Of a stretch of 64,000 bases of DNA, positions 12,629 through 47,634 are shown in pieces. Under the pieces are notes generated by a model that saw only the letters and a program-made list of their open reading frames with translations, did not search any database and had not been told where the DNA came from. The DNA lies in the NCBI GenBank assembly GCA_021849595.1, contig JAJZSR010000001.1, positions 6,004-70,003 on the forward strand. Reading direction: 5' to 3'. Source of the DNA: Pseudomonadota bacterium. GTDB lineage: Bacteria; Pseudomonadota; Gammaproteobacteria; Burkholderiales; Thiobacillaceae. The position numbers and the translations under genes were made by a program. How positions within the stretch are numbered: position 1 is the stretch's first letter; every line of letters starts with the position of its first letter.

Positions 12629-13975
12629 TCATGCCCATTGGACCGCCATCCCCGCCTCGCGCAGGCGCTGCAGCTTGTGACGCAGCGTGCGTGGGCTGAT
12701 GCCCAGGCGTTCGGCAGCCCGTTTCTTGGAACCCTGGCTGTCCTTGAGGGCATCGGCGATCAGGCGCCGTTCGTTTTCCGCCTGAGCGCCCTCCAGGCCG
12801 CTGTCACCCTCGGGCTCGCCGGGCGGCAACTCCAGCCGGGCACCGTCTTCCAGCATCAGGTCATCGATGCCTATGTCCCGTCCGTCGCACAAGATCACCA
12901 TGCGCTGCACGACGTTTTCCAGTTCCCGGACGTTGCCCGGCCAGCGCCACTCCAGCATGGCGCGGCGCGCGCGCGCGTCCAGTTGCGGCGCGCGCCCTGA
13001 ACCATGGGTGGCAGCATAGCGTTGCAGGAACAGTTCGGTCAGCGGCAGGATGTCTTCCCTGCGCTCGCGCAAGGCGGGGATGCGGATGGGAAAGACATTC
13101 AGGCGATAGTACAAATCCTCGCGCAACACGCCTTGCGCCACCGCCTGGCGCAGGTCGCGGTTGCTCGTGGCGATCACGCGCAAATCCAGCGCCACGCGGC
13201 GCCGGCCGCCCACGCGCTCGACTTCGCGCTCCTGCAGCACGCGCAGAAGTTTGGCCTGCAGGCCGGGCGCCATTTCCGTGACCTCGTCCAGCAACAGGGT
13301 GCCGCCCTGAGCCTGCTCGAATTTTCCCGGACTGGCCTGGCTCGCGCCCGTGTATGCGCCCTTTTCGTGGCCGAACAAGGTCGCCTCCAGGAGCGTCTCC
13401 GGAATGGCTGCGCAATTCACCGCGACGAAAGGCCCCTGGGCGCGCGGCGATTTGGAATGGATGTAGCGCGCCATGACCTCCTTGCCCACGCCGCTTTCCC
13501 CCAGCAGCATGATACCCACGTCGGTCTGCGCCGCGCGCCGCGCAACCTGCAGCGCCGCGCCCATGGTCGGCGCGCGCGCCACCAGGCCGTCTTCGCTCTG
13601 GCGCTGCGGGGCGCGCAAATGGCGCTTGACCTTGTCCAGCAGCAGGGCGGCGTCGAAAGGCTTGACCAGATAATCCACTGCCCCCACCTGCAGCGCGGCC
13701 ACGGCGTCCTGGATGGTGCCCCAGGCCGTCATCAGCAGGATGGGCAATTCGGGATAGCCTTGGCGTGCCCGGCGCAGCAGGGTGTAGCCGTCCATGGGCG
13801 CCATCTTGACATCGCTCACCATGAGATGGAAGGTTTCGCCGGCCAGCAGTTGCAAGGCCTCTTCGCCATCGTGCGCGCGCACCGTCACATAGTCGGCGAG
13901 GTCCAAGGCATCCTGCAGCGCCTCCGCCAACGCCTCATCGTCCTCAACCAGCAGTATCCGCGCGGCATCCGTCAC
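12629..13975 (-). CDS. fleR: Sigma54-dependent two-component response regulator (FleR/FlrC type)
   Basis: REC domain (ILLVEDDEAL...DVKMAPMDG), AAA+ domain (GESGVGKE, GAYTGA loop) and a C-terminal Fis-type HTH. Located between fleS and fliE, as in Pseudomonas. Confidence 0.9.
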   Translation of the reverse strand: MTDAARILLVEDDEALAEALQDALDLADYVTVRAHDGEEALQLLAGETFHLMVSDVKMAPMDGYTLLRRARQGYPELPILLMTAWGTIQDAVAALQVGAVDYLVKPFDAALLLDKVKRHLRAPQRQSEDGLVARAPTMGAALQVARRAAQTDVGIMLLGESGVGKEVMARYIHSKSPRAQGPFVAVNCAAIPETLLEATLFGHEKGAYTGASQASPGKFEQAQGGTLLLDEVTEMAPGLQAKLLRVLQEREVERVGGRRRVALDLRVIATSNRDLRQAVAQGVLREDLYYRLNVFPIRIPALRERREDILPLTELFLQRYAATHGSGRAPQLDARARRAMLEWRWPGNVRELENVVQRMVILCDGRDIGIDDLMLEDGARLELPPGEPEGDSGLEGAQAENERRLIADALKDSQGSKKRAAERLGISPRTLRHKLQRLREAGMAVQWA

Positions 13976-15197
13976 GATTTTCTCCTTTTGCCTGTTCGTC
14001 CGGGTTTCTCAAAGGCCCGCTTTCCAGCGCCTGGGCGCCCTGCCACAAAGGCACGCTCAGCGCGATGCAGGCACCTGGGAGCGCTGCGGGCTCGGCCCAG
14101 CAGCGCCCGCCCATGCTGTTCACGAAATCGCGCACGATGGCCAGGCCCAGGCCCGTGCCCCCGCTGCGCGTGCTGTAAAACGGCGTGAACACCCGCTCGC
14201 AATCCTGGAGAGCAATTCCGGGGCCAGCATCGCGTATGCGCAAGAGTAGCGCCTGGCCGTCGCGTTGCGCGGCCACGAGGATCGCGCTGCCGGCGGGGCT
14301 GAATTGCAGGGCATTGTGCAAAATGTTGCCGATCACGCTGACCCAGGCGGGGCCGCCGCCGGGGAGGATGACCCCGGGCGGGAGTTCTCCGATCTGCAAG
14401 GCGACGTTTTTTTGACGCAACAAATCATCAAATTCCTGACGCAAATCCCATAGCACTTTTTCCAACGGCACCGTGCCGTCGCCGCCTTCGCCGCGCAGGA
14501 AGCGCAGCATTTCGTTGATCGAGCGCTCCAAGCTGCGCAACCGTTCGATGCCGCGGTCGCGCAGGCGGGCGAAACGCGCGGGTTCCGTCTGAGGCGTGAG
14601 CTGGGAGATGGACAAGAGAGCCGTGGCCAGCGGAGTGCGCAACTGATGGGCCAGCCCGGCCATGGTTTCGCCCAGGGCCGCCAAGCGCTCGCGGCGCTGG
14701 AAGGCCTCCTCGCGCTGGCGCGCCTCGGTGACGTCCTGCATCAGCAGTAGCCGCCCCTGACCGTCGGGAAGCTGATTGACGGACAGCGTCAAGCGCAGTT
14801 CGGCGTCCTCGCCGCGCCGCAAGCGCCAGTCGCTGCCGGCGCCGGAGAGCGATTCCTCCGCCACTGCCGCCCAAGGCCGGCCCACGGCTTGGAGTCCGAA
14901 CAGGCGCGCGGCTTCCGGGTTCATTTCCTGGATCGTCCCCTGCGGATCCAGACTCACCACCGCGCCGGGCAGGGCCTGCAGCAGCAAGGCCAGGCGCCGA
15001 TGCAGGCGCTCCTTTTCCAAAAGTTCGTCGCGCAGCTTGGCGTTGGTGCGGGCCAGTTCGTCGTTCAGGCGCGCTATCTCCACCTGCAGGGTGGCATAGG
15101 CCTCCGAGAGCGTGCGGGACGTTTCGTTGAAGACGGCAAAGGCCTGCGCCAGGCGCGCGGCCTCGGCCGAGTCGGCTTCAGGCTTCATGTACCGCAC
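13944..15197 (-). CDS. fleS: Cytoplasmic PAS sensor histidine kinase (FleS/FlrB type)
   Basis: No TM segment. N-terminal coiled coil, PAS region, H-box LAHQLRTPLA and HATPase motifs (GLGLAIV). Confidence 0.88.
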   Translation of the reverse strand: MRYMKPEADSAEAARLAQAFAVFNETSRTLSEAYATLQVEIARLNDELARTNAKLRDELLEKERLHRRLALLLQALPGAVVSLDPQGTIQEMNPEAARLFGLQAVGRPWAAVAEESLSGAGSDWRLRRGEDAELRLTLSVNQLPDGQGRLLLMQDVTEARQREEAFQRRERLAALGETMAGLAHQLRTPLATALLSISQLTPQTEPARFARLRDRGIERLRSLERSINEMLRFLRGEGGDGTVPLEKVLWDLRQEFDDLLRQKNVALQIGELPPGVILPGGGPAWVSVIGNILHNALQFSPAGSAILVAAQRDGQALLLRIRDAGPGIALQDCERVFTPFYSTRSGGTGLGLAIVRDFVNSMGGRCWAEPAALPGACIALSVPLWQGAQALESGPLRNPDEQAKGENRDGCRADTAG

Positions 15198-16281
15198 CGG
15201 CTGCGCGCATGACGCTGATGCCCAGTTTACGGATCTTCTCCACCAGGGTCGTCCGCCTCAGCCCCAGCCGGTTGGCGGCATGGGCGATCACGTAATCGTG
15301 CGCCGCCAGCGCCTGTTCGATGAGCGAGCGCTCGATGCCTTCGAGATAGGCTTTGAGATCTATGCCTTCGGGCGGTAGTGCCGGGCCGGGGTCCGCCACC
15401 AGGCGCATGAGTTCGTTCAGGCCGTCATCGGGCTCCGCCGGCGCCGGCATGCTGGGCAGTCCGGCGCACATCTTGGCCGGAAGGTCATCCAGGCCCACAG
15501 TGCCGCCGGCATGCAAGATGACCAGACGCTCGACCAGATTCTGCAACTCGCGCACATTGCCGGGCCAGGCATATTCCAGCAGCGCGTGACGCACCGCGGG
15601 GTCGAGCCGGATGCCGCCCATGCCGGCATCGCTCAGGCGCTTCAGAGTCTGCTCGGCCAGCAACAGGATGTCCTCGCCCCGTTCGCGCAAAGGCGGCACG
15701 CGGATGGGGAAAACATTGAGGCGATAGTAGAGGTCTTCGCGAAAGCTGCCCTGCTCCACATGCCGCTCCAAATCACGGTGCGTGGCCGCGACGATGCGCG
15801 CCTCGGCGCGCACGGCACTGCTGCTGCCCACCCGCTCGAAACTGCGCTCCTGCAGCACACGCAGCAGCTTGACCTGCAGCGCCGGACTCATTTCGGCGAT
15901 TTCGTCGAGGAACAAAGTACCCCTGCCGGCCAGCTCGAAGCGCCCCTTGCGCGCCGCGGTGGCGCCGGTGAAAGCGCCGCGTTCGTGGCCGAACAACTCG
16001 CTTTCCATGAGTTCTCCGGGAATGGCGCCGCAATTGATGGCCACATAAGGCTGGCCCCCTCGTGGCGACCAGGCGTGCAGGGTGCGCGCCACCAGTTCCT
16101 TGCCGGTGCCCGATTCGCCCAGGACCAGCACCGTGCTGTCGGTCGCCGCGACGCGGGCGATCATATTGCGCAAATCGCGCATGGCCGTACTGTCTCCGAG
16201 CAACGGGCAGTCGGCTTCGTTGTTTTTCTCCGCCATGGCGCGATTGTATTTTTGCCCGAGAGAGCTGTCCATCGGGCTCAT
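15178..16281 (-). CDS. Sigma54-dependent transcriptional activator (FleQ-position gene) with no N-terminal receiver/FleQ domain
   Basis: The AAA+ domain starts about 10 to 25 residues after any plausible start (LLGDSTAMRDLRNMIARVA, GESGTGKE, GAFTGA), followed by a C-terminal HTH. The start is uncertain: 16281, 16272 or 16236. The longer ORF to 16545 overlaps the real SPOR gene. Confidence 0.8.
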   Translation of the reverse strand: MSPMDSSLGQKYNRAMAEKNNEADCPLLGDSTAMRDLRNMIARVAATDSTVLVLGESGTGKELVARTLHAWSPRGGQPYVAINCGAIPGELMESELFGHERGAFTGATAARKGRFELAGRGTLFLDEIAEMSPALQVKLLRVLQERSFERVGSSSAVRAEARIVAATHRDLERHVEQGSFREDLYYRLNVFPIRVPPLRERGEDILLLAEQTLKRLSDAGMGGIRLDPAVRHALLEYAWPGNVRELQNLVERLVILHAGGTVGLDDLPAKMCAGLPSMPAPAEPDDGLNELMRLVADPGPALPPEGIDLKAYLEGIERSLIEQALAAHDYVIAHAANRLGLRRTTLVEKIRKLGISVMRAAGAVHEA

Positions 16282-16324
16282 CGAAGCCGTAGCAGCGTCG
16301 AGATATGCAGCCGCTGGGGGCATG

Positions 16325-17008
16325 TCAGTCGCGGCCTCCATCCTTGCGCAGGAAACCCCGGATGCCCACCGTCTGCTTGAGCCGATCGCGCGCGCGCAGG
16401 GCCTCCCGCCCATCGTGGTAAGGTCCCGCCAGCACCAGCGTGAGCCCGCGCGCGTCCGAGGTGCAGACAGGGAAGCCGTGCCCCCGGCCTTGCGCCACGA
16501 GATCGCGGACATGCGCCGCTCCGCGCAGCGCGCCCAACTGGACATACCAACCCCTGGCCGGGCAGGGCTGCGCCAACGAAAGCACGGCCGGACGTGCCGG
16601 CTCGGCAGGGGACGTGCTGGCCGCCGCCCGCGCAGGTGCGGCCTGCGCCGCAGTGCCGGTATCCGCCCTCCCCTGCACCACGGCTGGCTCGCCGGGAGCC
16701 GCCGTCTGGGGAACCGTTACCGGTGCCGCACTTTTGCCTGCAGTCGTCGGCTGGCCACCGGCTGGCGCGGTCAAAATAGTTTGCGGGCGCACCACCACCG
16801 GCTTGGGCGAAACTGTCGACGCAGGCAGACGTTCTTGCGCCACCGGCCGGCCGCCTTGCGACGTCACGGTTCGGCCAGCCTGCCCGGCCAAGTAAGCGAA
16901 AACCGCCAAGCCCAACGCCGCGGCCATGCTGGCCAGAATGGCGAGATTCAGGCCGGCGAAGCGCCGCCCCAGGCGCCCGAATTCGTCCGCTCTCACCCCT
17001 GCCGCCAT
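16325..17008 (-). CDS. SPOR-domain (peptidoglycan-binding) membrane-anchored protein
   Basis: One TM segment (LNLAILASMAAALGLAVFAYLAG), a Pro/Ala linker and a C-terminal SPOR-like module (GWYVQLGALRGAAHVRDLVAQ...LVLAGPYHDGREALRARDRL). Confidence 0.75.
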   Translation of the reverse strand: MAAGVRADEFGRLGRRFAGLNLAILASMAAALGLAVFAYLAGQAGRTVTSQGGRPVAQERLPASTVSPKPVVVRPQTILTAPAGGQPTTAGKSAAPVTVPQTAAPGEPAVVQGRADTGTAAQAAPARAAASTSPAEPARPAVLSLAQPCPARGWYVQLGALRGAAHVRDLVAQGRGHGFPVCTSDARGLTLVLAGPYHDGREALRARDRLKQTVGIRGFLRKDGGRD

Positions 17009-17010
17009 GA

Positions 17011-17847
17011 TCAGCCCCGCTCCTGGATGCCGCCGGACATCAAAGGGGTGTTCCCCACCTGCGTCGGATGCTGCGGGGCCACCACCACGATGGACACGCG
17101 GCGGTTCTTGGCCTGCCCCTGCGGATTGCCGTTGGAGGCGATGGGATGGTATTGGCCGTAGCCGGCCGCCACCAGTTGTTCGGGCGCCACGCCCTGGTCT
17201 ATGAAGATTTCCACCACAGTGACGGCGCGCTGCGCCGACAGCGCCCAGTTGGACTGGAATTGGGGCGTGTGGATAGGCACGTTGTCGGTAAAACCGTTCA
17301 CCTGGATCTGATAGGGAATGCTGCGTATGACATGCGCCACCCGGGTCAGCACGGCGTCAGCGCCGGGCGCGAGGCTAGCCTGGCCGGAAGCAAAAAGCAC
17401 CTTGGCGTTGATTTCGATCACCACGCCCAGTGGGGTGAGATTGATATTTACGTCACCCTTGTCGATCAGCGGCTTGAGCAGAGTTTTGATCTGCAAGGCG
17501 ATTTTTTCCAGCGCCTGCGAGGCATCCTTGGGCTCGGGCGTGGGGCGCTCGATGATGCTGACATGAGGAACCGGCTGGAGCGAGGTGGGTTGCGGAAGGG
17601 GGGGAAGCTTGACCGTCGAGGCGACGGTGTTGAACGGCTCGCCCTGCTGGATAGGCGCCGGCATTTTGGGCTGGCCGGTGAAAGCGGCGAACAGGGTGTC
17701 GGAAAGGACTTTGTATTTGCCCTCGTTGACCGAGGAGATCGAGTACATCACCACGAAAAAGGCAAACAGCAGGGTGATGAAATCGGCATAGGAAACCAGC
17801 CAGCGCTCGTGGTTTTCATGCTCTTCGTGGACAGGTTTGCGCGCCAT
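17011..17847 (-). CDS. motD: MotB/MotD-type flagellar stator B subunit (OmpA-like C-terminus). No adjacent MotA/MotC gene
   Basis: N-terminus HENHERWLVSYADFITLLFAFFVVMYSISSVNEGKYKVLSD, with the conserved Asp in the TM helix. C-terminal OmpA-like peptidoglycan-binding domain (NGFTDNVPI...SNWALSAQRA...NRRVSIVV). Confidence 0.85.
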   Translation of the reverse strand: MARKPVHEEHENHERWLVSYADFITLLFAFFVVMYSISSVNEGKYKVLSDTLFAAFTGQPKMPAPIQQGEPFNTVASTVKLPPLPQPTSLQPVPHVSIIERPTPEPKDASQALEKIALQIKTLLKPLIDKGDVNINLTPLGVVIEINAKVLFASGQASLAPGADAVLTRVAHVIRSIPYQIQVNGFTDNVPIHTPQFQSNWALSAQRAVTVVEIFIDQGVAPEQLVAAGYGQYHPIASNGNPQGQAKNRRVSIVVVAPQHPTQVGNTPLMSGGIQERG

Positions 17848-17871
17848 GCAGTAAGTTATTTATGGTCCGTT

Positions 17872-17898
17872 GGGTTGGCGGGGGCGGCCCCCCAACCC
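17872..17898 (-). other. GC-rich hairpin between the unknown gene and motD
   Basis: GGGTTGGCGGGGGC/GCCCCCCAACCC imperfect palindrome with no T-tract. It could be an attenuator or a REP-like structure. Confidence 0.35.
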
Positions 17899-17922
17899 AT
17901 TAACGGCAGGCGCGGCCGGGAT

Positions 17923-18489
17923 TTAAGGGGTGGTGCGCTGGCGCGCCACGTCGCGGCGGTGGTGGCGGAAAATCAGCCGCTCCAGGCCCCGCTGCACGGC
18001 GGGTTCCAGACCTCTGAATTCGAGGGTTCGGCAATATCCATGAGCCTGCAGGGCGTGTTCTTCCACCACGACGCCCGGCAAGACGAGCGGCATGACCACA
18101 CGCTGGCGCAGATAAACGCGCGTCCAGAAATGCTGGCCTACCCCGAGGGCCTCTGGGCTGGCCCAGCGCAGCGTATGCGCAGTGAGGATACAGGGAAACG
18201 GCGGCGGCACCTTCCCCATCCCGCGCAACGCGGCGCTGGCCATGAGCAACAACAAATCGACCCGACGTTCCAGCGACTGGATGCCGCTGTCCCGCGCGTG
18301 CTCCGTTTCGGCGGCGCCGGCCGCCTCATCCATGGCCAGCAGGGCGCGCAATAGGACGTGGTTGTCGGCCATGACATCCGAAAGCGCCGCAGGGTCTTCC
18401 GGTGGAGCCCCCCAGGCCAAGGGCAATTGGCCTTCCAGCCTGACGGCATCGCCGCCGGCCAGGCTGTTAAGTTCGTGGTAAGCAGTCAT
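17923..18489 (-). CDS. Hypothetical protein (about 188 aa), possibly a PilZ-like or other flagellar accessory protein
   Basis: GC3-rich ORF in operon position between fliS and motD, with a C-terminal RRDVAR (RRxxxR-like) motif. I recognise no family with certainty. I chose the start at MTAYHELNS. Confidence 0.55.
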   Translation of the reverse strand: MTAYHELNSLAGGDAVRLEGQLPLAWGAPPEDPAALSDVMADNHVLLRALLAMDEAAGAAETEHARDSGIQSLERRVDLLLLMASAALRGMGKVPPPFPCILTAHTLRWASPEALGVGQHFWTRVYLRQRVVMPLVLPGVVVEEHALQAHGYCRTLEFRGLEPAVQRGLERLIFRHHRRDVARQRTTP

Positions 18490-18637
18490 CGCAGGCTCCC
18501 AAAGCTCCAACTCGGCGCGACTTGGGCCGCGCTTCGGCTCCAATAGTATAGGAATTGCGCCGAAGAACTTTCAGCCGGGTTCGCCGGCGCTCAGCCCGTC
18601 CACCTTGCGGGAACCAACCGGCCTGGAGCCAGCGCCG

Positions 18638-21422: not shown

Positions 21423-22898
21423 TTACGGCAACAGCTTGAGGTAGCTCTGCTGCAGGGCGTTGGCTTGCGCCAGGGTGGAGATGCCGGCCTGCTGCAGGAT
21501 CTGGTACTTGGTCAGTTGCGAGGTCGCCTCGGCGATGTTCGCATCCTGCACCACGGAGCGCGCGGACTGCAGATTGGTCGCGGTGGTCTGCAAGTTCTGC
21601 ACCGATGCCTGTACCCGATTCTGGATCGCGCCGAGCGCGCCGCCTTGCTGGTTCAAGGCATTGATGGCGTTGTCGATGATCGAGATGGCCTGGTTGGCGC
21701 CCTGCACCGTGGACACGCTGACCGTTGACGCGGCATTGAGCGAGCTGATGTTGGACAGCCCGATGTTGGTGCCATTGCTCAGCGAGTAGCCTTGCGTCGA
21801 TTGCAATTGGACGTAGCCCTGGACCAGCGCCGTGCCCGCCGCGCTCGTAATTGCGGAAGCACTGCCTGCCTGCAACGTTCCGCTGCCGCCGAAGCCGGAA
21901 ATCAGGACGTTGTGGCCCTGATTCTGCGTCAGCACCAGTTGGTTGCTGGAGTTGACGCTGGCCGCCACGCCGGTCTGCGCCGTGCTGTTGTTGATCGCCG
22001 CGACCAGGCCGCTCAAGCCGGTGGGATCGACGCTAGTGACGTTGGCCGAGATGTTGACCGTGTTGGTCGGGCTGCCCGAGGTTCCGTTGGAGATGGAGAA
22101 GGAAAACGAGCCGCTCGTCACGGAAAACGCCACGCTGGTGTTGGCCGTTGCGCTTACCCCGGTCTGCTGCGTAATGGCGTTGAACGACGCCGCAATGTTG
22201 GCCGCCGATTCGCTCGCAGTCACCGCTACACCGCTGGCGCCGGCGGAGCCGGATACGTTTACCGTGCCGGCCGTGAAATTGCCCGCGCCGGTGCTGATGG
22301 TATAGGCGGAACCGTAGCCGTTGGAGGTGACTGAACCGCTGCCGGCAGCGTAGACACTGCCGCTGGTGGCGACGGTATTCACGCCGATGGCATTGGCCTG
22401 CGCATTGGAGATGGAGACGTTGATAACCTGGTTGGCGTTCGCGCCCACCTGGAACTGCTGGCCGGAAAAGCTGCCGTCCAGGATGTTCTGGCCGTTGAAC
22501 TGGGTCTGGGTGGCAACGGTTTGCACCTGGGCCAGCAGTTGTGACACGACTCCCTGCAGGGAAGCCCGGTCGGCCGAGGTGTTGGAGCCGTTGGCTGCCT
22601 GCACGGCGATGGTGCGGATCTGCTGCAGCAGATTGGTTTCGTTCTGCAGCGCGCCCGTGGCCGTCTGCACCAAGGACACCGCCTGGTTGCCGTTGGACAC
22701 CGCCTGGTTCAAGCCATTGATCTGCGTGGTGAAGCGCTGGGCGATGGCGTAACCGGCAGGGTTGTCCGCCGGGCTGTTGATCGCCTTGCCCGTGGAAAGC
22801 TGCTGGATATAGGTAGAAAGATTGCTGGAAGTATCGTTGAGCGCGTTGAGCGTGCTCAGGGAATTGATGTTGGTGTTGATGATCCCTGTAATTGCCAT
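21423..22898 (-). CDS. fliC: Flagellin
   Basis: 491 aa with conserved D0/D1 N-terminus (INTNINSLSTLNALN...LSTGKAINSPADNPAGYAIAQRF) and C-terminus (QILQQAGISTLAQANALQQSYLKLLP). The Ser/Thr-rich central domain carries two flagellin-IN-like motifs. Confidence 0.97.
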   Translation of the reverse strand: MAITGIINTNINSLSTLNALNDTSSNLSTYIQQLSTGKAINSPADNPAGYAIAQRFTTQINGLNQAVSNGNQAVSLVQTATGALQNETNLLQQIRTIAVQAANGSNTSADRASLQGVVSQLLAQVQTVATQTQFNGQNILDGSFSGQQFQVGANANQVINVSISNAQANAIGVNTVATSGSVYAAGSGSVTSNGYGSAYTISTGAGNFTAGTVNVSGSAGASGVAVTASESAANIAASFNAITQQTGVSATANTSVAFSVTSGSFSFSISNGTSGSPTNTVNISANVTSVDPTGLSGLVAAINNSTAQTGVAASVNSSNQLVLTQNQGHNVLISGFGGSGTLQAGSASAITSAAGTALVQGYVQLQSTQGYSLSNGTNIGLSNISSLNAASTVSVSTVQGANQAISIIDNAINALNQQGGALGAIQNRVQASVQNLQTTATNLQSARSVVQDANIAEATSQLTKYQILQQAGISTLAQANALQQSYLKLLP

Positions 22899-22951: not shown

Positions 22952-24457
22952 TCAGCCTGCAACAGGCTTATCGTCACGTCCCCTGAAAACTTTAGCGTGC
23001 ATATTCTGTGGCGACGCTGGGTGTTGATGCGGCTCTTCGCGCAAAGCCTGCAGGCGCCGATGCAACTCCCCGATTTTGGCAACGAGTTCATCGACACGCG
23101 GGGCAGCACCTGCGGGCGCCGGGGCATTTGCCGCGCCCGGGGCGCATAACCGGCCGCAGAACGCCGCAATGGTCTGAGCGGCCTGCGCTTGGCGCGCCAG
23201 CCCCTCGCGCAAGCTGGCCAGGGCTGGCCGCACATCGGCCCGTAGTGCCTCTACCGGCTCCGCGTCGGCCGCAGCCTCCCCAGCCTGCAGCGCTAGGCCG
23301 GCTTGCGCGATGTCGCGCGCCAAATCCATGCCTTCGGCGCACAGGGGGTCGAGCTGTTCGCCCAAAGCGGCGAGCTGGGCGGGTTCGGCTTGGCCCTGCA
23401 GTAGGGCCAGACGCAGATTCAGGCATAGCAGTAGCAGCTGCTCGACTTTTTCCCCCGCTGCTTGCAGAGCCGGGGCCAGGCCATCGGGCTGCGCGTGGCC
23501 GCGCCTGCGCTCGGGCAGCTCCCGCGCCAACGCGTCCTGGATTTCCTGCGCCCGCTCGCTGCCCGAGCGCAAGCCGGCGGCGAGCCCCTGCAGGCCGCGC
23601 AGCAATTTATCGAAATGCTCGGCCCCCGCAAGCTGTGGACCGGTCTGGACCGCGGCGCAGACCTTGGCCAGTTGACCGGCCAGTGTCTCCAACTCTGCCG
23701 CCGCTTGTTCCGCCTGCGCCAGCTTGCCCACGGCGGCTTCCCGCATGTTGGCGCTGCGGCCCTCCAGTTCCTCCAGGTCTGCCGCCAGCGCGCGCAAGCC
23801 GCGCCCGACGGGCAAGGCTGCCACCGACAAACCGGCCGCCATGGCCCGTAACCGATCGCGCAGGGCAGCGTGCTGGCGGCGCCAGCCCCAGGCCAGATAG
23901 GCGGCCGCCAGCCCCAGCAGCGTGACGCTGCCCAGGGCGAACAGCGCCAGGTTGTGCTCCACCATGACGCGCAGTCGGGCGCTGCGCGCGGCCTGCGCCA
24001 GTCCCTGGCGCCCCAGGCGGGCAGCATATCGGCCCAGCGCCTGCTGCAGCCGCGCCAGTTGCGCCGTCGAAGCGGCGGTAAGCACCGCACCGCTGGCGAG
24101 CGGGTGGCTCAACTCCACCAGTGCGGCCAACGCTTGCCGGTCGGCCCCGTCGAAGGGCAGCGCAGCCGCCTGGCCGTAGAGACCCTGCAAGACCCCATCG
24201 GCAAACTGCATGCGGTTGCCGGCGACCGCCGCCGCGCCGTTGGTCCCCGATGCGGCCTGGTTCGCCAGTTGGCGCGCCGCCGCCACCTCGTTCTGCACCA
24301 CTTGCAGTTGCATGGTCATCCGGCCCAGCCGCGCCCGCGCTTCCATGCCCTGCTCGACGCCCCGCAACTGCCAATAGGCCCAGGCCGCCCCGCCAGCCAG
24401 CAAAGCGGCGGCGACCAGGGCCAGAAAGAGTAACGCGTAGCCGGGGGTAAGCTTCAC
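22952..24457 (-). CDS. MCP-like membrane protein: TM1, periplasmic region, TM2 and a long Ala/Leu-rich coiled coil, without a canonical MCP signalling tip
   Basis: 501 aa with TM segments at the N-terminus and around residues 170-195, followed by about 300 aa of heptad-like Ala/Leu/Gln sequence. There is only a weak tip-like stretch (EQLLLLCLNLRLALLQG). Its start overlaps the upstream cheW-like stop. Confidence 0.6.
   Translation of the reverse strand: MKLTPGYALLFLALVAAALLAGGAAWAYWQLRGVEQGMEARARLGRMTMQLQVVQNEVAAARQLANQAASGTNGAAAVAGNRMQFADGVLQGLYGQAAALPFDGADRQALAALVELSHPLASGAVLTAASTAQLARLQQALGRYAARLGRQGLAQAARSARLRVMVEHNLALFALGSVTLLGLAAAYLAWGWRRQHAALRDRLRAMAAGLSVAALPVGRGLRALAADLEELEGRSANMREAAVGKLAQAEQAAAELETLAGQLAKVCAAVQTGPQLAGAEHFDKLLRGLQGLAAGLRSGSERAQEIQDALARELPERRRGHAQPDGLAPALQAAGEKVEQLLLLCLNLRLALLQGQAEPAQLAALGEQLDPLCAEGMDLARDIAQAGLALQAGEAAADAEPVEALRADVRPALASLREGLARQAQAAQTIAAFCGRLCAPGAANAPAPAGAAPRVDELVAKIGELHRRLQALREEPHQHPASPQNMHAKVFRGRDDKPVAG
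22968..22994 (-). promoter_or_regulatory. Sigma28 (FliA) promoter of fliC
   Basis: The minus strand reads TAAAGTTT-N11-GACGATAA against the consensus TAAAGTTT-N11-GCCGATAA (one mismatch), about 70 nt upstream of the fliC ATG. Confidence 0.85.
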
Positions 24458-24897
24458 GGCGCCGCCCCGCCCCCCGCAGCCAACAGCACGGCGGGTTCCA
24501 GGATGGGATCGATGTCATCGCCTTGGCGCACCAGCCCGGCGATGGCATTCCACGGCGGCGGCAGCACAGCCTGCAATGGCAGCACGGCAGAAGGCGGCAA
24601 GCGCCGCAGACCCAGCACGGCGTCCACCCGCAAACCCAGCGCCTGGCCATCCCGTGCCCAGATCACCAAGCGCTCCTGCTGAGCCTCCCGTACCGTCCCC
24701 TGCGCCAGCCAAAGGGCGGCATCCAGCACCGTGACCGGACGCCCCTGCCAGGCGATGACGCCCAGGCAGGACGGGCAGGCGCCGGGCACGCAGGCCAAGG
24801 GCGGCATGCGCATCACCTGGCGCACGCCGCCGGCCGCCAAAGCCCAGCGCTGCTCTCCAAGACGGAATACCAGCCAGTCTGTCGCGGTGCCGTTCAC
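24454..24897 (-). CDS. CheW-like coupling protein
   Basis: 147 aa with the typical CheW pattern (WLVFRLGEQRWALAAGGVRQVMRMPPLACVPGACPSCLGVIAWQGRPVTVLDAALWL...LGLRVDAVLGL). Confidence 0.8.
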   Translation of the reverse strand: MNGTATDWLVFRLGEQRWALAAGGVRQVMRMPPLACVPGACPSCLGVIAWQGRPVTVLDAALWLAQGTVREAQQERLVIWARDGQALGLRVDAVLGLRRLPPSAVLPLQAVLPPPWNAIAGLVRQGDDIDPILEPAVLLAAGGGAAP

Positions 24898-26093
24898 GCT
24901 GCATTCTCCGGCGTGACAATGACTTCCGGCCGCAACAACAGCACCACCTCGCCTTGCGCGCTCACTGCCGCACCGCCTAACTCAGCGGGATATAGGGCGG
25001 CTGGAAGCAACGGCTGGATGCGCAGGCTTTCCGTGCCGTGCACCCGATCGGCCCAGAGCCCGATGCGATGCCGTCCGCTCTCGACCAGGACGATGCGGGC
25101 ATCCACCGGGCGCTCTCCGAGCTTCCAACGCCCGCGCACATCCAGCACCGGCACTGCCGCGCCGTTGACGGCCGCCAGGGCTTTCTCGCCGGACAGGGCC
25201 CTGACGTCGCGTGTGGGTTCCACAAAACCGAGAACATTGGCCGCCGGCAGCCCGAACAGGGCGGGCCCTATGGCCAGCTTAAGCACGGCCATCGTTTCCG
25301 CCTCGGGAAATTCGGCAGGAAGTGGCGGCCGAAGCCGCGGTGGCGTGGCAGCAGTGTGCCCGCCGGCATCGAGCGCCGCCGGCTCCGGTAGGCTTTCCGT
25401 CTGTAATGGGGCCGCATATTGCACCGCCGCCTCCATTTGCAGGTCGGGCGGATTGACGGGCAACTCGGGGACCACCCCCAGATAAAGGCGTTCGATCTGT
25501 TCCCGGAAAGCACGCCATTCGAGCATCCACTCCTGGAACATTTCGGCCACCGGCGCCCCTGTAACGCCAGGCGGTTCCGGGGGTGTGGGACTAGGCATGG
25601 GCTGATCCGGCGGCAGGGCATCTTGGCTCCGCGGCGGTTCCGGCGCGGCCTTGGCCACATCATCCCCTGTATCGACAGGCAAGCCCCCATCGCAAATTTC
25701 TGCGCGGACATCAGCTTGCGCCGCCGCAGTAGCCGCAACGCCCAGCACCGCCAGATGCCGGCCGATCTCCCGGCCGGCTCCCAGCAGGTTTTCTCTCGTT
25801 TCATCGGACGGCGCGCCGGCAGTCTTCGCCAGGCGAATCTCCTGTTGCCGGCAAAGCTCGGCCAGCGGTGCGATTTCCAGAAACTCGGCGCCTATCCTGA
25901 TGCCCCGCAGGGCTTCCAACGCGGCATCCACCGGCGCTTGCGCGGACGGTGCGAGCGCCTCCAGGAATTCCTCCAGATAGCGCTGCGCATCGGCCAAAAA
26001 AGCCTGCAACAAGGCGCGATTGCCGGCGAGCTGCGTCATGCCGAGCGGCTGCGGGACGGCAACGCCCCGCGGGGGGCGACGGAATTGCGCCAA
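24894..26093 (-). CDS. Pseudo-HPt / CheW-domain hybrid (CheA-like scaffold with no dimerisation or kinase domains)
   Basis: The N-terminal four-helix HPt-like segment aligns to the CheA P1 domain in this window, with Arg in place of the phospho-His (ALEALRGIRIGAEFL versus IFRAFHTLKGGAGFL). A Pro-rich linker follows, then a C-terminal CheW-like domain (AVLKLAIGPALFGLPAANVLGFVEP...IGLWADRVHG). An alternative start lies at 26039. Confidence 0.7.
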   Translation of the reverse strand: MAQFRRPPRGVAVPQPLGMTQLAGNRALLQAFLADAQRYLEEFLEALAPSAQAPVDAALEALRGIRIGAEFLEIAPLAELCRQQEIRLAKTAGAPSDETRENLLGAGREIGRHLAVLGVAATAAAQADVRAEICDGGLPVDTGDDVAKAAPEPPRSQDALPPDQPMPSPTPPEPPGVTGAPVAEMFQEWMLEWRAFREQIERLYLGVVPELPVNPPDLQMEAAVQYAAPLQTESLPEPAALDAGGHTAATPPRLRPPLPAEFPEAETMAVLKLAIGPALFGLPAANVLGFVEPTRDVRALSGEKALAAVNGAAVPVLDVRGRWKLGERPVDARIVLVESGRHRIGLWADRVHGTESLRIQPLLPAALYPAELGGAAVSAQGEVVLLLRPEVIVTPENAA

Positions 26094-26111
26094 CGGCGGC
26101 CCGACATGGTT

Positions 26112-27080
26112 TTATCCCGCCGGCTGCTCGGATTGCGCCGCGGCAGCCGCAAGATAGACCCGGTTGCGCCCCTCCGCCTTGGCCCGATAAAGCGCGCCGT
26201 CGGCGAACTCCAGGGTCTGCGTGGGCGAGGCAGCGGCCGCCAGTTCGGCCACTCCGGCAGAGAAGCTTATGCGCAGCGGTTTGCCTGTAGCCGTAGCGAA
26301 GGCGGCGCGGCCCGCCGCCTCCCGTATGCGGTCGACCAGGCGCTTGGCCACGGGTGCATGGACGCCCGGCAGGCACAACACGAACTCCTCGCCGCCGTAG
26401 CGGAAAACGCCGTCATAAGAGCGCAGATTCGCCCGCAACAGGGCGGCGAAACGTGTCAGCACCTGGTCGCCGCTCAAATGGCCGTGCCGGTCGTTGATTT
26501 CCTTGAAGCGGTCGATGTCCAGCAGTGCCACGGCGCAGGGTCGGCCTTCCCGCTGCATGCGCGACCACTCTTGCTGCAGGCAATCCTCCAGGGCACGCCG
26601 CCCCCCCAGGCCGGTGAGTGGGTCGAGCGCGGCCATGAGCGCTGCGCGCTCCGCCTCCAGGGCGCTGAAAAGCGACAGGATTTCGAGCGCCGCGTCCACC
26701 ACGCGGTTGCGCAAGTCGCCAAACGCCGCGCTTGGCCGGCGCCTTGTGCCCGCGAGGGCGTCCAGCCGCGCCAAATGATAGGCAAGTTCGCCATACAGCG
26801 GACGCGCCTCGATGCCGGCGGCGCCAAACTGGCTGCCAGCCAACTCGGCCTCGATGGCCGCACGCGGAAAATCCAGGCCGCCGGCACCCCACGCCCCGTC
26901 GCCCGCCAGCCGCAGGGTGTTGCGCAGCCAGGATTCGAATGCACTGCGCGCCCGGCGCAAGGCATCCCCGGCCGTGGGCCGCGATGATTCCGCGCGGCGG
27001 GCGCCCAGCCCTTTTTCGGCTTGGGCAAGTCTGGAGTTTTTCGGCCGTTCGGCCAGCGGCAGCGCTATCACCAGGGACAT
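26112..27080 (-). CDS. GGDEF diguanylate cyclase with an uncharacterised N-terminal domain of about 150 aa
   Basis: Intact active site RYGGEEF with an upstream I-site (RSYD), DPLTGLGGRRAL and LLDIDRFKEINDRHGH motifs. The N-terminus contains neither a REC nor a PAS signature. Confidence 0.85.
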   Translation of the reverse strand: MSLVIALPLAERPKNSRLAQAEKGLGARRAESSRPTAGDALRRARSAFESWLRNTLRLAGDGAWGAGGLDFPRAAIEAELAGSQFGAAGIEARPLYGELAYHLARLDALAGTRRRPSAAFGDLRNRVVDAALEILSLFSALEAERAALMAALDPLTGLGGRRALEDCLQQEWSRMQREGRPCAVALLDIDRFKEINDRHGHLSGDQVLTRFAALLRANLRSYDGVFRYGGEEFVLCLPGVHAPVAKRLVDRIREAAGRAAFATATGKPLRISFSAGVAELAAAASPTQTLEFADGALYRAKAEGRNRVYLAAAAAQSEQPAG

Positions 27081-27117
27081 GCCAGTTTCCTCGACAAAAA
27101 GTCACTGGCAAGCCTCT

Positions 27118-27133
27118 AGCAAACCTGATGCCA
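27118..27133 (-). promoter_or_regulatory. Sigma54 (-24/-12) promoter of the GGDEF/CheW-like operon
   Basis: The minus strand reads TGGCATCAGGTTTGCT against TGGCAC-N5-TTGCW, with exact GG-N10-GC spacing, about 40 nt upstream of the ATG at 27080. Confidence 0.7.
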
Positions 27134-27161
27134 ACCAAAAACGCCAATAATGTATTTTATT

Positions 27162-27174
27162 TATCAATAGGTTG
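27162..27174 (+). promoter_or_regulatory. IHF-like site upstream of the sigma54 promoter
   Basis: TATCAATAGGTTG matches WATCAANNNNTTR. It sits in an AT-rich tract about 30 to 55 nt upstream of the -24 element. Confidence 0.45.
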
Positions 27175-27256
27175 TCTGATTTCCTGGCGGCAACCGCGAG
27201 GGGCGGCTTGCCGCCGGCCCGGACGCGTCAATATTTTGGCTGGCGCTAAGGCCTTA

Positions 27257-27961
27257 TCAATTGAACGGCACGACGACTTCGCCGGCGGCATCTACCAGAC
27301 CTCGCACCACCTTGCCCGACTGGACGTTGCGCACTAGGATGTTTTGCCCCGTGCGGCCATTTTCCATGGCAGAACCCAGGGCCGTGAGCCGCACGCCCCG
27401 GCCTTCGGCCACCAGCGTGACCGCTTGGCCGTAACGGATGACTTCCGGCTGCAGCAGCATGTTCTCCAAGATGGGTTGGCCAGCGGCGACGTTGTAGCGC
27501 AACACCTTACCCAGAATGCCATCGGGGGACAGTACGGCATTCGCGGCCATCTGCCCGGTGTTGCGCCTGACCATAGCCAAGTCCTCGGCCGTCAACATCC
27601 TGCCGGCCTCCAGCGGACGCGCCGCCACCACCACGCGCTGCTCCACGATCACTCGCGCCGGCAGATACACACTCCAGGCCTGCGGCGCGGCGCAGCGTAC
27701 AAGAACGGTCAAGCTGCCGAAAGGATTGGCCTCGCCAAAAAACGCCGCCTGCATATCGGCGCAACGCGGGAAGCGGATTTCCTCCGCCGGCGCCTGCACT
27801 TCGATACGCGCCGCCTGCGCCGCCAGCGGCTCATGCGCGCGGATGTAAGCCTCGGCCGCCGCGCGTATGCGGGCAGGCGATTCCCAGGGCTGCGCGCTGG
27901 CCCAAGCCCAAGCGGGCAGCAACAGCAGGACCAGGGCTGTCCACCCATAGGGGTGACGCAT
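27257..27961 (-). CDS. flgA: Flagellar P-ring chaperone FlgA
   Basis: 234 aa with a signal peptide (WTALVLLLLPAWAWASA) and a C-terminal SAF/FlgA domain (GQPILENMLLQPEVIRYGQAVTLVAEG...GRTGQNILVRN). An alternative start lies at 28018. The 450-aa ORF track entry is over-extended. Confidence 0.88.
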   Translation of the reverse strand: MRHPYGWTALVLLLLPAWAWASAQPWESPARIRAAAEAYIRAHEPLAAQAARIEVQAPAEEIRFPRCADMQAAFFGEANPFGSLTVLVRCAAPQAWSVYLPARVIVEQRVVVAARPLEAGRMLTAEDLAMVRRNTGQMAANAVLSPDGILGKVLRYNVAAGQPILENMLLQPEVIRYGQAVTLVAEGRGVRLTALGSAMENGRTGQNILVRNVQSGKVVRGLVDAAGEVVVPFN

Positions 27962-28222
27962 CCCTGTCGCCCGACCGCGCCGAGAGAGGGATGTTGCGCG
28001 AAATTTGGGTGCAGCCATGGAGAGCCTCCTGCGGAGATACCGCGGGTGCCACATGCAATAGGCGTGCCTTGGCACGGCCCGGCACCGTACCATGCTCGCG
28101 TCGCACCCGACTCGCGCGCGCTTGCCGCGTGCGGCAAGACATTGCCGCCCAGCCCGTTTATGGACTTGCGCATTCGGGGGCGGTACCCGCATCAAGGCGG
28201 CCTTACGGGCGCCGCCGACTTC

Positions 28223-39496: not shown

Positions 39497-40783
39497 ATGC
39501 GTCATTCTCGTGAAAAGGAGTGGCTAAAAAATTCCGGCCTCTTCGATGCGGCATGGTATCTCCAACATAACCCTGATGTCGCCGCATCAACGTTCGATCC
39601 ACTCGACCACTGGTGCGATTTCGGACACAAAGAAGGTCGTGACCCAAATGCCGGTTTCTCCGTCAACGAGTACCGCCGCGCGCATCCGGATTGCTTCATC
39701 GGCCAGAATCCTTTGTTCCACGCCGCAAGAGCTCAAGCACATCGTGGTATCGCGGATCACCGTCTGCGTGTGCAAAGCCTACGTGGGCGGCCATTGCCAG
39801 CCGTAAGCCCAAGTGGCGCCCGACTCGTCGCCTCGGAAATTATTGAAGCCGACTCGGTGCGCAGGATCGCAGTCATAAAACTCGACCATATCGGTGATGT
39901 GTATCTTTCCTTGTCGGCGCTTGAGCGATTACAGCAGAAATTCCCTAACGCCGAATTCACTATCTTTTGTGCATCTTTCACCCGTGAAATTTTTGAGAGC
40001 GCTGGATTTGGACATTGTGTAACACTGGATGTCTTCCCTTATGGCGGCGTCGGCCATAATGGGGTCCGCCCGCGTGTCGCGTTACCCGCCAGCCAATTCG
40101 ATCTCGCAATCGATTTCCGGGTCGAACGCGACGCGCGCGAAATTATGTTCGCAGTTGGCGGCTTCTTAACCGTCGCTTACGATCCGATGGCAGACTATCG
40201 CTTGCCATATCCTGGCGCCGACATTCCCCATGAAAAGCAGCTACACCTGCTTGTGGAAAGAATTTCCAGTACCGGGCGCGCGACCGTGCCCGTACCTTTG
40301 TCCCGCCCGCTACGCGTGGTCCTTTGCCCTAGCGGATCGGTACAGGCCAAGCAATGGCCGAAGGCGAATTGGATCGAACTCGCCCGTCTGCTCAGACAGG
40401 CAGGCCATACGCCAATCTTTCTGGGCGCCCCCGCCGATCTCGAAGAGACCCAACGGCTGGCACGTGAGGCCGGCTCTGCACTGCAATCTCCCCTTGCATT
40501 GCAGCACTACCCGACTTGGGTAAGCGAGTCTTCCGACGTTTATGTTGGTTGCGATACCGGCCCCACCCATGCAGTGGCCTTGCAGGGGCATCGGGTCGTC
40601 GAGATTATCGGCGGCTACACCAATGTCGAGGAATGGATTGCGCCCGGGCCCAATGTCCTTGGCCTACATCGGCCCACACCTTGCTCTCCTTGCTTTTCGC
40701 CCCGATACTGCCCTAGCGCTTGGTATTGCCTGTCGATCCCCGCCAGCGACGTGTTTTGGGCTATTGAGCTGCTGTCCACGTAA
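39497..40783 (+). CDS. Glycosyltransferase family 9 (heptosyltransferase-like) with an N-terminal DxxWYLxxNPDV/EGRxPN motif
   Basis: RIAVIKLDHIGDVYLSLSALERL, VVLCPSGSVQAKQWPKANWIELARLL and YVGCDTGPTHAVAL are GT9 hallmarks. The gene sits in a lower-GC stretch directly after flgL. Confidence 0.75.
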   Translation: MRHSREKEWLKNSGLFDAAWYLQHNPDVAASTFDPLDHWCDFGHKEGRDPNAGFSVNEYRRAHPDCFIGQNPLFHAARAQAHRGIADHRLRVQSLRGRPLPAVSPSGARLVASEIIEADSVRRIAVIKLDHIGDVYLSLSALERLQQKFPNAEFTIFCASFTREIFESAGFGHCVTLDVFPYGGVGHNGVRPRVALPASQFDLAIDFRVERDAREIMFAVGGFLTVAYDPMADYRLPYPGADIPHEKQLHLLVERISSTGRATVPVPLSRPLRVVLCPSGSVQAKQWPKANWIELARLLRQAGHTPIFLGAPADLEETQRLAREAGSALQSPLALQHYPTWVSESSDVYVGCDTGPTHAVALQGHRVVEIIGGYTNVEEWIAPGPNVLGLHRPTPCSPCFSPRYCPSAWYCLSIPASDVFWAIELLST

Positions 40784-40799
40784 GCCAAACGTCAAAATC

Positions 40800-46597: not shown

Positions 46598-47632
46598 CTA
46601 TGCCGCGCCCAGCGCCTGCAGCCGCTGCGCGATCTCGGGGAGTGCGGCGGTCGCGCCCGCTATGCCGTGCCGGATGGGCTGCACCGCTTCGAGCGCCCCG
46701 GCTGCGCCCTGCACCTGCGCCTCGGCGATGTCGCGCACTTTCTGCAGGGTTCCGCTGGTCGCGCCGAGAAATTCGCAGGCCTCGCCGACCAGGTTGTCCA
46801 CGCGGCCGATGTGTTCCACGGCGCGCTGCATTTCCTCGCCCACCTGCTGCGAACCGCCGCGGATGCTGTGCGTGAGATTCTCGATCTCTTGGGTGATGGA
46901 GGCGGTGCGGCGCGCCAGATTGCGCACTTCGTCGGCCACTACGGCAAAGCCCCGGCCGTGCTCACCCGCGCGCGCCGCCTCAATGGCGGCATTGAGCGCA
47001 AGCAGATTGGTCTGCTGGGCGATCTCGCGTATGCCCGCGGTTAACCGCTCCACGGAACGAACGGAGTCCACGAATCCCACCAGCTTCTCTTCCGTACCCT
47101 GGACGAAGCCCATGACCTCGGACACCTCCCCCAGTACGGTGGCCATGGCCTCGTTGCCGGCCTGGATGGACGACTGGGTTTCGCCCAGATTGTCTTCCAG
47201 CAGGCGCAATTGCGACTGCATGCCCTCTACCCGTTCGATCGCCTGGCTCACGCCGGCGGCCCCCTCGGTCATGCGTTCCAGCAGATGATCGAGGTCATTG
47301 CTTGCCTGCCCCAAGGATTCCAGATCCAACGCGGCCACCTGCGGAACATCCGCGCGTTGGCTGAGCAGTGCCGCGCGCGCGGATGCGAGCTTCTCAGCCC
47401 AGGCCGGCTCCAGCTCGCGCAATGGCGCGTCGTCGCCCTCGGCGAGCACCGCCAGAACCGCGGCCAGGAGTTTTTCTCTATCCTCCCGCAATCTTTCCAC
47501 CAATCCGCCGGGACGCCCGCTTTCCCGGGCATCCCGCTCGCGTGCGCCTTCGTTCTGCGGCATCGCCTGCTTGTCTTCCACGGCCAACTCAGCACCCATC
47601 ACCGCCTCCGTTTTACGCTGTTTCCCAGCCAT
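46598..47632 (-). CDS. Soluble methyl-accepting chemotaxis protein (signalling domain only, no TM segments)
   Basis: Canonical tip [42 protein letters not shown] chose the start at MAGKQRK, 3 nt after the upstream stop. Confidence 0.88.
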
Positions 47633-47634
47633 CG

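Follow-up and report, generated by a model that had tools for sequence, protein, structure and literature searches.

A chemosensory-derived operon without phosphotransfer beside the flagellin gene of Thiomonas and its relatives: a possible CheW-fold tether for a GGDEF cyclase

How could chemotaxis-type adaptor proteins act on a GGDEF cyclase if the operon that encodes them holds no kinase? This question is raised by four minus-strand open reading frames (ORFs) that fill the space between flgA (27257-28018) and fliC (21423-22898) in the window analysed here, a 64-kb stretch of contig JAJZSR010000001.1 from a metagenome-assembled genome related to Thiomonas. The ORFs encode a cyclase, a hybrid of HPt-like and CheW-type parts, a stand-alone CheW and a membrane protein that we call gene 4 (Table 1), and they lie where an earlier reading made from the letters alone, the sequence-only reading, had placed them. 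No CheA kinase, REC, CheR or CheB is encoded within the operon, and the unit is best called a chemosensory-derived module for cyclic di-GMP (c-di-GMP) without phosphotransfer. We propose tentatively, and at somewhat less than an even chance, that it forms a phosphorylation-independent CheW-fold scaffold which tethers or gates a cyclase of the flagellar regulon.

The hybrid is a CheA remnant made up of a pseudo-P1 domain, a tether and a P5 domain. When the protein is numbered from its TTG ORF, Pfam recognises CheW at residues 273-393 (4.6e-13) and returns a weak, sub-threshold Hpt match (0.032). The locus of Thiomonas delicata gives the same Pfam pattern, its hybrid having an Hpt match of 0.004, again below threshold, and a weak CheW score (0.27). 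In the AlphaFold model the N-terminus forms a four-helix bundle (residues 6-105, predicted local distance difference test score, pLDDT, 76-92), after which about 140 residues of disorder surround a single helix and lead to CheW-type beta-barrels. All top Foldseek neighbours of the bundle are histidine phosphotransfer (HPt) domains (3kyj, 1tqg, 1i5n and 7c1i, probability 1.00), ranked as the P1 domains of R. sphaeroides CheA3, T. maritima CheA (template modelling score, TM, 0.75; root-mean-square deviation 2.3) and Salmonella CheA, and the C-terminal domain leads to CheA P5 and CheW structures (E 5e-8). The bundle can also be aligned by hhalign on residues 4-104 of the P1 domain of the CheA encoded elsewhere in the window (E 5.8e-4). 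As about 100 of the 381 aa are taken up by the bundle, about 125 by the CheW domain and the rest by a variable, disordered linker, there is no room for P3 and P4; the length, the variability of the linker, the model and the fold search all speak against a cryptic kinase core, which we reject. The sequence-only reading had described an HPt-like N-terminus and a CheW domain without dimerisation or ATPase domains, which Pfam, the model and Foldseek bear out; it had also asked whether an intact kinase core might be hidden in the hybrid, and none was found.

To follow the family we scanned one genome per species for the N-terminal motif of the hybrid and obtained 27 loci (numbered with the prefix L), among them those of T. 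delicata, T. bhubaneswarensis, T. intermedia, strain FB-6 and many metagenome-assembled genomes (MAGs) from acid mines and springs. The hybrid linker is hypervariable in both length and sequence and is rich in repeats, which are of PE in L006, L017 and L021 and of the AASQ type in L018, L025 and L029. The bundle keeps the fold of a functional HPt domain and lacks the phosphorylatable His on helix 2. Indeed, no conserved His is present in the N-terminal domain in an alignment of ten family members, and hhalign pairs Arg45 of the hybrid (EALRGIRIG) with the phospho-His of CheA AFHTLKGG. The motif EALRGIRIGA[ED]FL is identical in 14 of 14 full-length hybrids aligned across clades, a constancy that is partly one of ascertainment because the loci were found with that same peptide. 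With no kinase, no His (an invariant Arg standing instead) and no receiver, phosphotransfer by the unit is excluded, and the earlier claim that it could not operate as Wsp does is strengthened by Arg45 in the position of the His. Any signalling by the operon must therefore go via protein contacts, since histidine, kinase and receiver have all been lost.

The stand-alone CheW is a clear member of its family, as the sequence-only reading had it (PF01584, 4.4e-22, 78.6 bits). In E. coli CheW, Arg62 together with Glu38 couples the receptor and kinase sites and is needed for proper kinase control (PMC3828127). In an alignment of low identity that uses the xRGxxhPVhDL motif as its anchor, the position of Arg62 is occupied by Gln in the window CheW, by His in T. 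delicata CheW and by an invariant Asn in the hybrids. Of the features that define Che and Wsp systems, CheW-type coupling is thus present in the unit, and the kinase core, the MCP (methyl-accepting chemotaxis protein) domain, the REC output and CheR/CheB are absent.

The cyclase, judged by its residues, is intact at both its active site and its inhibitory I-site, as had been claimed for its GGEEF and I-site motifs. Pfam places GGDEF at residues 150-307 (1.9e-41), and 18-24 orthologues show no variation in the GG[DE]EF A-site, in the RxxD I-site or at the positions that bind metal and GTP. The I-site reads RSYD, with R220 and D223 invariant, and lies five residues upstream of the A-site. The N-terminus, about 150 aa that the sequence-only reading could not recognise, matches no Pfam or NCBIfam family; NCBIfam gives generic cyclase matches only, with a DgcZ-type model from residue 129 on (stalk and GGDEF), and a 16-sequence profile of the region against PDB retrieves only designed antiparallel coiled coils. 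REC, PAS and CZB are rejected on these grounds, and the earlier description holds: the domain is helical and neither REC nor PAS, the two identities that the sequence-only reading had wished to see checked. A mutual comparison of the cyclase N-terminus, the pseudo-HPt domain, the cytoplasmic region of gene 4 and the MCP tip found no similarity among them. Most cyclase orthologues start with a hydrophobic peptide, M-x-A-[IL]-A-L-[LM]-P, followed by a variable stretch and then the helical domain; this peptide (window 27050-27080, minus strand, first 8-10 codons) may be a docking peptide.

Gene 4 belongs to an orphan family without a Pfam match (none at E<=1), in particular without the PF00015 MCP domain, and without an NCBIfam match. 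A word-index search found 11 relatives, and an exhaustive hidden Markov model (HMM) search of 1.84 billion protein representatives gave 3 matches, all of them from gene 4's own family and no MCP. The family is small and evolves fast; the syntenic proteins of Thiomonas can be recognised only with E values from 2e-8 to about 0.1. Its topology comprises a first transmembrane helix, a periplasmic four-helix bundle (about 30-170), a second transmembrane helix and a helical cytoplasmic region of about 300 aa. The periplasmic bundle is modelled at pLDDT 83-92 and has the NarQ and QseE sensor domains as structural neighbours. Conservation is strongest in the middle of the cytoplasmic region, at L-x-L-L-[CGS]-L-N-[LF]-R-L-x-L followed by ...[DE]L[DE][PA]L, which in the window reads EQLLLLCLNLRLALL...FAA..EQLDPLCAEG. 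By analogy, the mid-point position of this motif, where a tip would be, suggests that the region may fold as a cytoplasmic hairpin.

The four genes are held together both by their junctions and by descent. GTGA overlaps of 4 nt, read directly in the sequence, join the hybrid to CheW and CheW to gene 4, in agreement with the tight packing described earlier. The 18-nt gap reported between the first two genes did not stand: it applies only if the hybrid starts at TTG 26093 (ORF 24894-26093), whereas the ATG at 26039, which is the start favoured by the gene callers and by all homologues, leaves 72 nt. Wherever the contig is long enough, the 27 species' loci of Thiomonas and relatives share the order flgA-cyclase-hybrid-CheW-gene 4-fliC-fliD, with ORFs intact and cut only at contig ends, so that the four genes are co-conserved in related genomes, a point on which the sequence-only reading had let its case depend. 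The arrangement is common to the whole clade and hence ancestral within it; it does not go back to a recent insertion, and the earlier word "inserted" is misleading. Over five species pairs, the ratio of nonsynonymous to synonymous substitution rates (dN/dS) stays within 0.11-0.52 for every one of the four genes, comparable with that of FlgA, and therefore all four are kept by purifying selection; the cyclase lies at 0.19-0.27, the higher values of the hybrid reflect its linker, and in the more distant pairs the operon genes lie above FliC. The GC content of the operon (0.66-0.73) is richer than that of its flanks (0.59-0.65). The system appears confined to a single small clade of Burkholderiales from acid mines and hot springs.

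The operon is probably sigma54-dependent and FleQ-activated, as far as its promoter region can tell. The -24/-12 element upstream of the cyclase (TGGCATCAGGTTTGCT) is the sole exact match to TGGCAY-N5-TTGCW in 64 kb, for which 0.21 matches are expected and at least one was found in 19 of 100 shuffles; taken alone, this uniqueness is weak evidence. The position of the element carries more weight: TGGCA[CT]-N5-[CT]TTGCT precedes the called cyclase start codon by 17-54 nt in 24 of 26 related loci, a conservation of sequence that far exceeds chance, and the good promoter claimed for the operon is borne out. Further upstream lies the sole exact match in the window to a box of the GTCA-N6-TGAC type (GCCAAAATATTGAC), with the footprint consensus GTCAAAAnnnYGAC; of 25 distinct promoter regions, 24 carry such a box upstream of the -24 element. 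The distance between the two takes only the values 107, 115-117 or 124-126 bp, and these steps of about one helical turn suggest that the phasing on the face of the helix has been preserved. Both half-sites and spacing of the window box match the consensus GTCaNTAAAtTGAC proposed for P. aeruginosa FleQ (as quoted in PMC6120874), and the box is likely to be a site for a FleQ-type activator, for which the FleQ homologue encoded in the same cluster as fleS and fleR is the candidate. This homologue (E 7.5e-107 to PDB 8p53) has a shorter N-terminal region than its Pseudomonas counterpart. The placement of the operon in the sigma54 tier is thereby backed by phylogenetic footprinting and by the upstream box. 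The IHF-like site noted previously between box and promoter (TATCAATAGGTTG) is indeed an exact match to WATCAANNNNTTR, but it is limited to the window and its nearest relative, L003; it is absent in the other loci, several of which are AT-rich there instead, and we reject it as a conserved feature and regard it as clade-specific.

Downstream, fliC has a sigma28-type promoter of its own (TAAAGTTT-N11-GACGATAA) within the last 18 codons of gene 4, and in Thiomonas the positionally equivalent TAAAG...GCCGTTAA and TAAAG...GTCGTCAA elements overlap the gene 4 stop codon. Given the conserved sigma54 element and this separate promoter, the operon probably constitutes a sigma54 unit of its own that ends at the promoter of fliC. 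Thiomonas gene 4 terminates at the TAA contained in the TAAAG -35 box (L024 13215-13250; L021 12775-12810). In the window's clade (22952-23005, minus strand) gene 4 reads through the fliC promoter for a further 18 codons (QNMHAKVFRGRDDKPVAG), which are found only in its three closest homologues. An Rfam scan of the window returned no RNA family.

Table 1. Features of the operon, its control region and its surroundings in the 64-kb window
Feature	Position	Strand	Remarks
Cyclase	26112-27080	-	322 aa; helical N-terminus (about 1-150), then GGDEF domain; GGEEF A-site, RSYD I-site
Hybrid (CheA remnant)	24894-26039	-	381 aa from ATG; alternative TTG start 26093
Hybrid, bundle	residues 6-105		four-helix bundle
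Hybrid, linker	between bundle and P5/CheW domain		disordered; conserved helix 162-187
Hybrid, P5/CheW domain	residues 248-375
Stand-alone CheW	24454-24897	-	147 aa; GTGA overlap at each end
Gene 4	22952-24457	-	501 aa; helical protein with two transmembrane helices; orphan family
sigma54 -24/-12 element TGGCATCAGGTTTGCT	27118-27133	-	conserved upstream of cyclase
GTCA-N6-TGAC type box GCCAAAATATTGAC	27227-27240	-	predicted binding site of sigma54 activator (FleQ-type)
IHF consensus TATCAATAGGTTG	27162-27174	+	between box and promoter; exact WATCAANNNNTTR match
fliC sigma28-type promoter TAAAGTTT-N11-GACGATAA	22968-22994	-	within last 18 codons of gene 4
FleQ homologue	15178-16545	-	candidate operon activator; E 7.5e-107 to PDB 8p53
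fleS	13944-15188		same cluster as FleQ homologue
fleR	12629-13975		same cluster as FleQ homologue
tPilZ protein	17923-18489	-	context
EAL-HDOD protein	45278-46558	+	context
cheA, complete	49027-50946	-	no adjoining cheW; 22 kb from operon
cheZ	50946-51434	-	context, outside unit
cheY	51431-51823	-	context, outside unit
PilZN-PilZ (YcgR-type) c-di-GMP effector	53726-54457	-	context

In the model that we tentatively put forward, gene 4 would act as a membrane protein with two transmembrane helices and, in the window's clade, with a periplasmic four-helix-bundle sensor. CheW and the P5/CheW domain of the CheA remnant would bridge gene 4 into a membrane complex, from which the His-less HPt-fold bundle, on its long disordered tether, may serve as a docking module and not as a carrier of phosphoryl groups. 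This bundle would most likely dock on the co-transcribed cyclase, at its helical N-terminal hairpin and stalk. The activity of the cyclase is expected to depend on dimerisation via the helical N-terminus, and docking would both tether the enzyme at the membrane complex and set its dimerisation, hence its activity, with the RxxD I-site capping the output. The c-di-GMP produced would act on the YcgR-type PilZ protein and the tPilZ protein of the same supercluster so that the motor is braked or re-programmed, and the neighbouring EAL-HDOD protein may oppose the cyclase. In all of this we infer the protein-protein contacts, the direction of the signal, the identity of the activator and the c-di-GMP targets. 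With the sequence-only reading, we hypothesise that a receptor/CheW lattice gates a cyclase; the more specific version, an array derivative without a kinase in which sensor, CheW and CheA remnant control the cyclase by conformational or assembly coupling and the Arg-bearing former phosphotransfer domain has been re-used for docking the cyclase, is conceivable and rather doubtful.

Two side observations concern other stretches of the window. The tPilZ protein, a further c-di-GMP receptor within the flagellar cluster, is encoded beside MotB-like (MotB_plug/OmpA) and SPOR-domain proteins between fliS and fleQ (16325-18543, minus strand). Between flgL and the che genes (39497-45209, plus strand) lie a Glyco_transf_9 gene, three small ORFs that encode unknown proteins and a 998-aa RgpF/Glycos_transf_2 multi-glycosyltransferase, which may represent a flagellin glycosylation island.

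Several observations weigh against the proposed scaffold. Compared by hhalign with Tar, Tap and the window MCP, gene 4 reaches a probability of 0.16-0.18%, a PDB profile search finds no MCP, Foldseek lends no support to an MCP and gives nothing at E<=1e-3, and the cytoplasmic part is modelled as all-helical at low confidence (pLDDT below 60). With no detectable MCP homology and a low-confidence cytoplasmic model, the binding of CheW to gene 4 is a matter of analogy only. Thiomonas orthologues of gene 4 have a short loop in place of the periplasmic domain, and an external stimulus is for that reason not a general feature. In the hybrid, the conserved W..R central helix (window residues 162-187) is missing from the T. 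intermedia clade. In L010 (MAG SKS3.bin93) the cyclase has been replaced by a 23-codon remnant, which follows a FleQ-type box and a sigma54 element (L010 9660-10000), with hybrid, CheW and gene 4 intact; the trio therefore has no strict need of a cyclase encoded in cis. The FleQ homologue retains two of five c-di-GMP contact residues (R185 and R334), R144 being changed to C, N186 to T and E330 to Q relative to P. aeruginosa FleQ, and we do not claim it as a target of c-di-GMP feedback. Finally, a complete cheA without an adjoining cheW lies 22 kb from the operon, and the CheW-fold proteins of the operon may serve the cheY-cheZ-cheA set, which lacks a cheW. The anatomy will surprise a specialist; the mechanism is one that we infer throughout, and the receptor analogy is weak.

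The description of gene 4 as "MCP-like" has to be read accordingly. Its topology and periplasmic four-helix bundle agree with it, but there is no detectable homology to MCP signalling domains, so that the term is a statement on topology and not on homology. The segment EQLLLLCLNLRL...FAAVAEQL of gene 4 can be aligned in register with the MCP tip, without statistical support; hhalign chose this register with a shallow alignment (probability 0.16%) and lost it with a 21-sequence alignment. Remote MCP homology, unsupported by hhalign, the PDB profile, Foldseek and the exhaustive HMM search, is an unproven lead.

The nearby cheA leads to the first alternative, in which the operon is an accessory of an ordinary chemotaxis array. 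Here CheW, perhaps with the P5 domain of the hybrid, would couple the window's cheA to receptors; the hybrid would occupy P5 positions in the array rings, the cyclase would be brought to the array with the kinase acting in trans, and c-di-GMP synthesis would be tied to the position or state of the array. We consider this possible, if unlikely. The sequence-only reading overlooked the cheY-cheZ-cheA set when it called the unit kinase-less, and although no CheA, REC, CheR or CheB belongs to the operon, "kinase-less" is true of the operon and not necessarily of the pathway. No other CheW, no CheR and no CheB is encoded anywhere in the 64-kb window, and the stand-alone CheW is, with its 78.6 bits, a good one by Pfam. 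The supercluster continues after cheA (46598-49022, minus strand) with a 208-aa ORF, in which Pfam sees a faint MCP tip (E 0.01), and with genes for an ODP protein and for an MCP of 333 aa that is soluble. The ODP protein is a di-iron protein (Lactamase_B/ODP), and the three genes resemble an ODP-type cytoplasmic receptor set, yet have no cheW, cheR or cheB. The flagellar locus of Thiomonas CB strains also has cheA, cheZ and cheY, and the sole other cheW named in text and supplement of the work on these strains sits on an accessory "che islet" absent in strain CB1; the four genes lying between flgA and the flagellin gene are missing from the tables of that work (PMC5481541). Furthermore, a protein of CheA lineage that lacks an ATPase is usually one half of a split kinase (10.1101/2022.05.07.491035), as with CheA3 and CheA4. 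Set against this, the hybrid has no His with which to take a phosphoryl group from any CheA, and both CheW-fold domains lack the Arg62 equivalent. The operon also has its own membrane protein and is predicted to be driven by sigma54, whereas the che genes would be expected, by analogy with Pseudomonas-type hierarchies, to be driven by sigma28 like the fliC of the window, and ordinary cheW genes may exist in the MAG outside the window. The tentative kinase-free scaffold and this alternative share a common core, a CheW-fold tether for the cyclase, and differ in whether a kinase takes part.

A second alternative separates the cyclase from the other three proteins. CheW-like domains occur in non-signalling roles, as in ParP, and the hybrid, CheW and gene 4 could similarly be a scaffold for positioning or assembly at the flagellar pole or at arrays, with the cyclase merely co-transcribed and self-regulated via its own N-terminus. 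We hold this to be improbable. It would account for the trio that persists without a cyclase in L010, for a Thiomonas gene 4 without a sensor domain and for the long disordered repeat linkers, which are tether-like. It accounts less well for the cyclase standing first in the operon at every other locus where the contig covers that end, or for the confidently modelled, sensor-type periplasmic bundle of the window clade with its NarQ and QseE neighbours, and neither the annotated genes around the operon nor the three flanking stretches examined reveal a ParC-like or landmark partner. Lastly, that only the cyclase matters, and that hybrid, CheW and gene 4 survive as functionless, decaying parts of a former Wsp- or Che-type cluster, is poorly supported and very improbable, since the degenerate domains (His, P3 and P4 lost; the weak T. 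delicata CheW score) and the fast evolution of gene 4 that might suggest it are contradicted by ORFs intact over all 27 species' loci apart from contig ends, by dN/dS values comparable with FlgA, by the strictly conserved pseudo-HPt motif and by the translational coupling kept at the GTGA overlaps.

How the tentatively proposed kinase-free scaffold would differ from what is known is best seen against Wsp, a system of the alternative cellular functions (ACF) class that comprises the MCP WspA, the CheW proteins WspB and WspD, the CheA-REC protein WspE, the REC-GGDEF protein WspR, and WspC and WspF. Wsp is the known route from Che-type signalling to c-di-GMP, in which a phosphoryl group is passed to the REC-GGDEF protein. 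The operon resembles it in having chemotaxis-type adaptors, a membrane receptor-like protein and a GGDEF cyclase with an intact I-site, and in a predicted output of c-di-GMP and not of motor switching, but it is without the kinase core, the phospho-His, the REC domain of the cyclase, the methylation enzymes and a detectable MCP signalling domain. CheA3 of R. sphaeroides (Cereibacter) shares with the hybrid an HPt-fold N-terminus, a C-terminal P5, CheA lineage and the lack of autophosphorylation. That protein, split with CheA4, keeps the phosphorylatable His and degenerate P2, P3 and P4 domains and adjoins its partner kinase (10.1101/2023.09.19.558490), whereas the hybrid has an invariant Arg for the His, no P3 or P4 and no partner kinase in the operon. 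P. aeruginosa ChpA also contains HPt-fold domains of CheA lineage without the conserved His, but there they lie inside a full kinase with other, functional Hpt domains; in the hybrid the His-less domain is the sole HPt-fold domain and the best-conserved part of the protein.

Precedents exist for the single elements of the model. ParP, which joins a CheW-like array-integrating domain to a partner-binding N-terminus and holds arrays at a polar anchor, is a precedent for a CheW-fold tether, although unlike the operon it has no HPt-fold domain and no cyclase partner. In P. aeruginosa, Pch/DipA is a phosphodiesterase that docks on a real, phosphorylated CheA and thus provides a precedent for a c-di-GMP enzyme at the chemotaxis machinery. 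The control region is like that of Pseudomonas-type FleQ/sigma54 class II-III promoters in its -24/-12 element, its GTCA-N6-TGAC box, the fleQ-fleS-fleR genes in the cluster and the sigma28-driven fliC; we know of no cyclase with CheW-fold partners that is a member of a FleQ/sigma54 regulon. A CheA with four core domains is central to all Che-type pathways that have been surveyed to date (10.1101/2023.09.19.558490). Searches of the literature for Thiomonas with CheW and cyclase, for CheW-like proteins with GGDEF and for cyclases at arrays, whose coverage is incomplete, found no description of the operon, and within those limits the statement that no system of this composition has been described stands.

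The operon points to a possible phosphate-free link from a membrane sensor to c-di-GMP. The general reach of such a system is limited by the smallness of the clade. If the more specific version is true, kinase-free control of a cyclase by conformation or assembly would be a signalling logic undescribed for any Che-type system. Furthermore, three motile species, Thiomonas delicata, T. intermedia and T. bhubaneswarensis, are in culture, which would make the operon a tractable case for the role of His-less Hpt domains, for signalling from a CheW/P5 lattice to targets other than kinases, and for how a cyclase of the flagellar regulon talks to the PilZ brakes of the motor.

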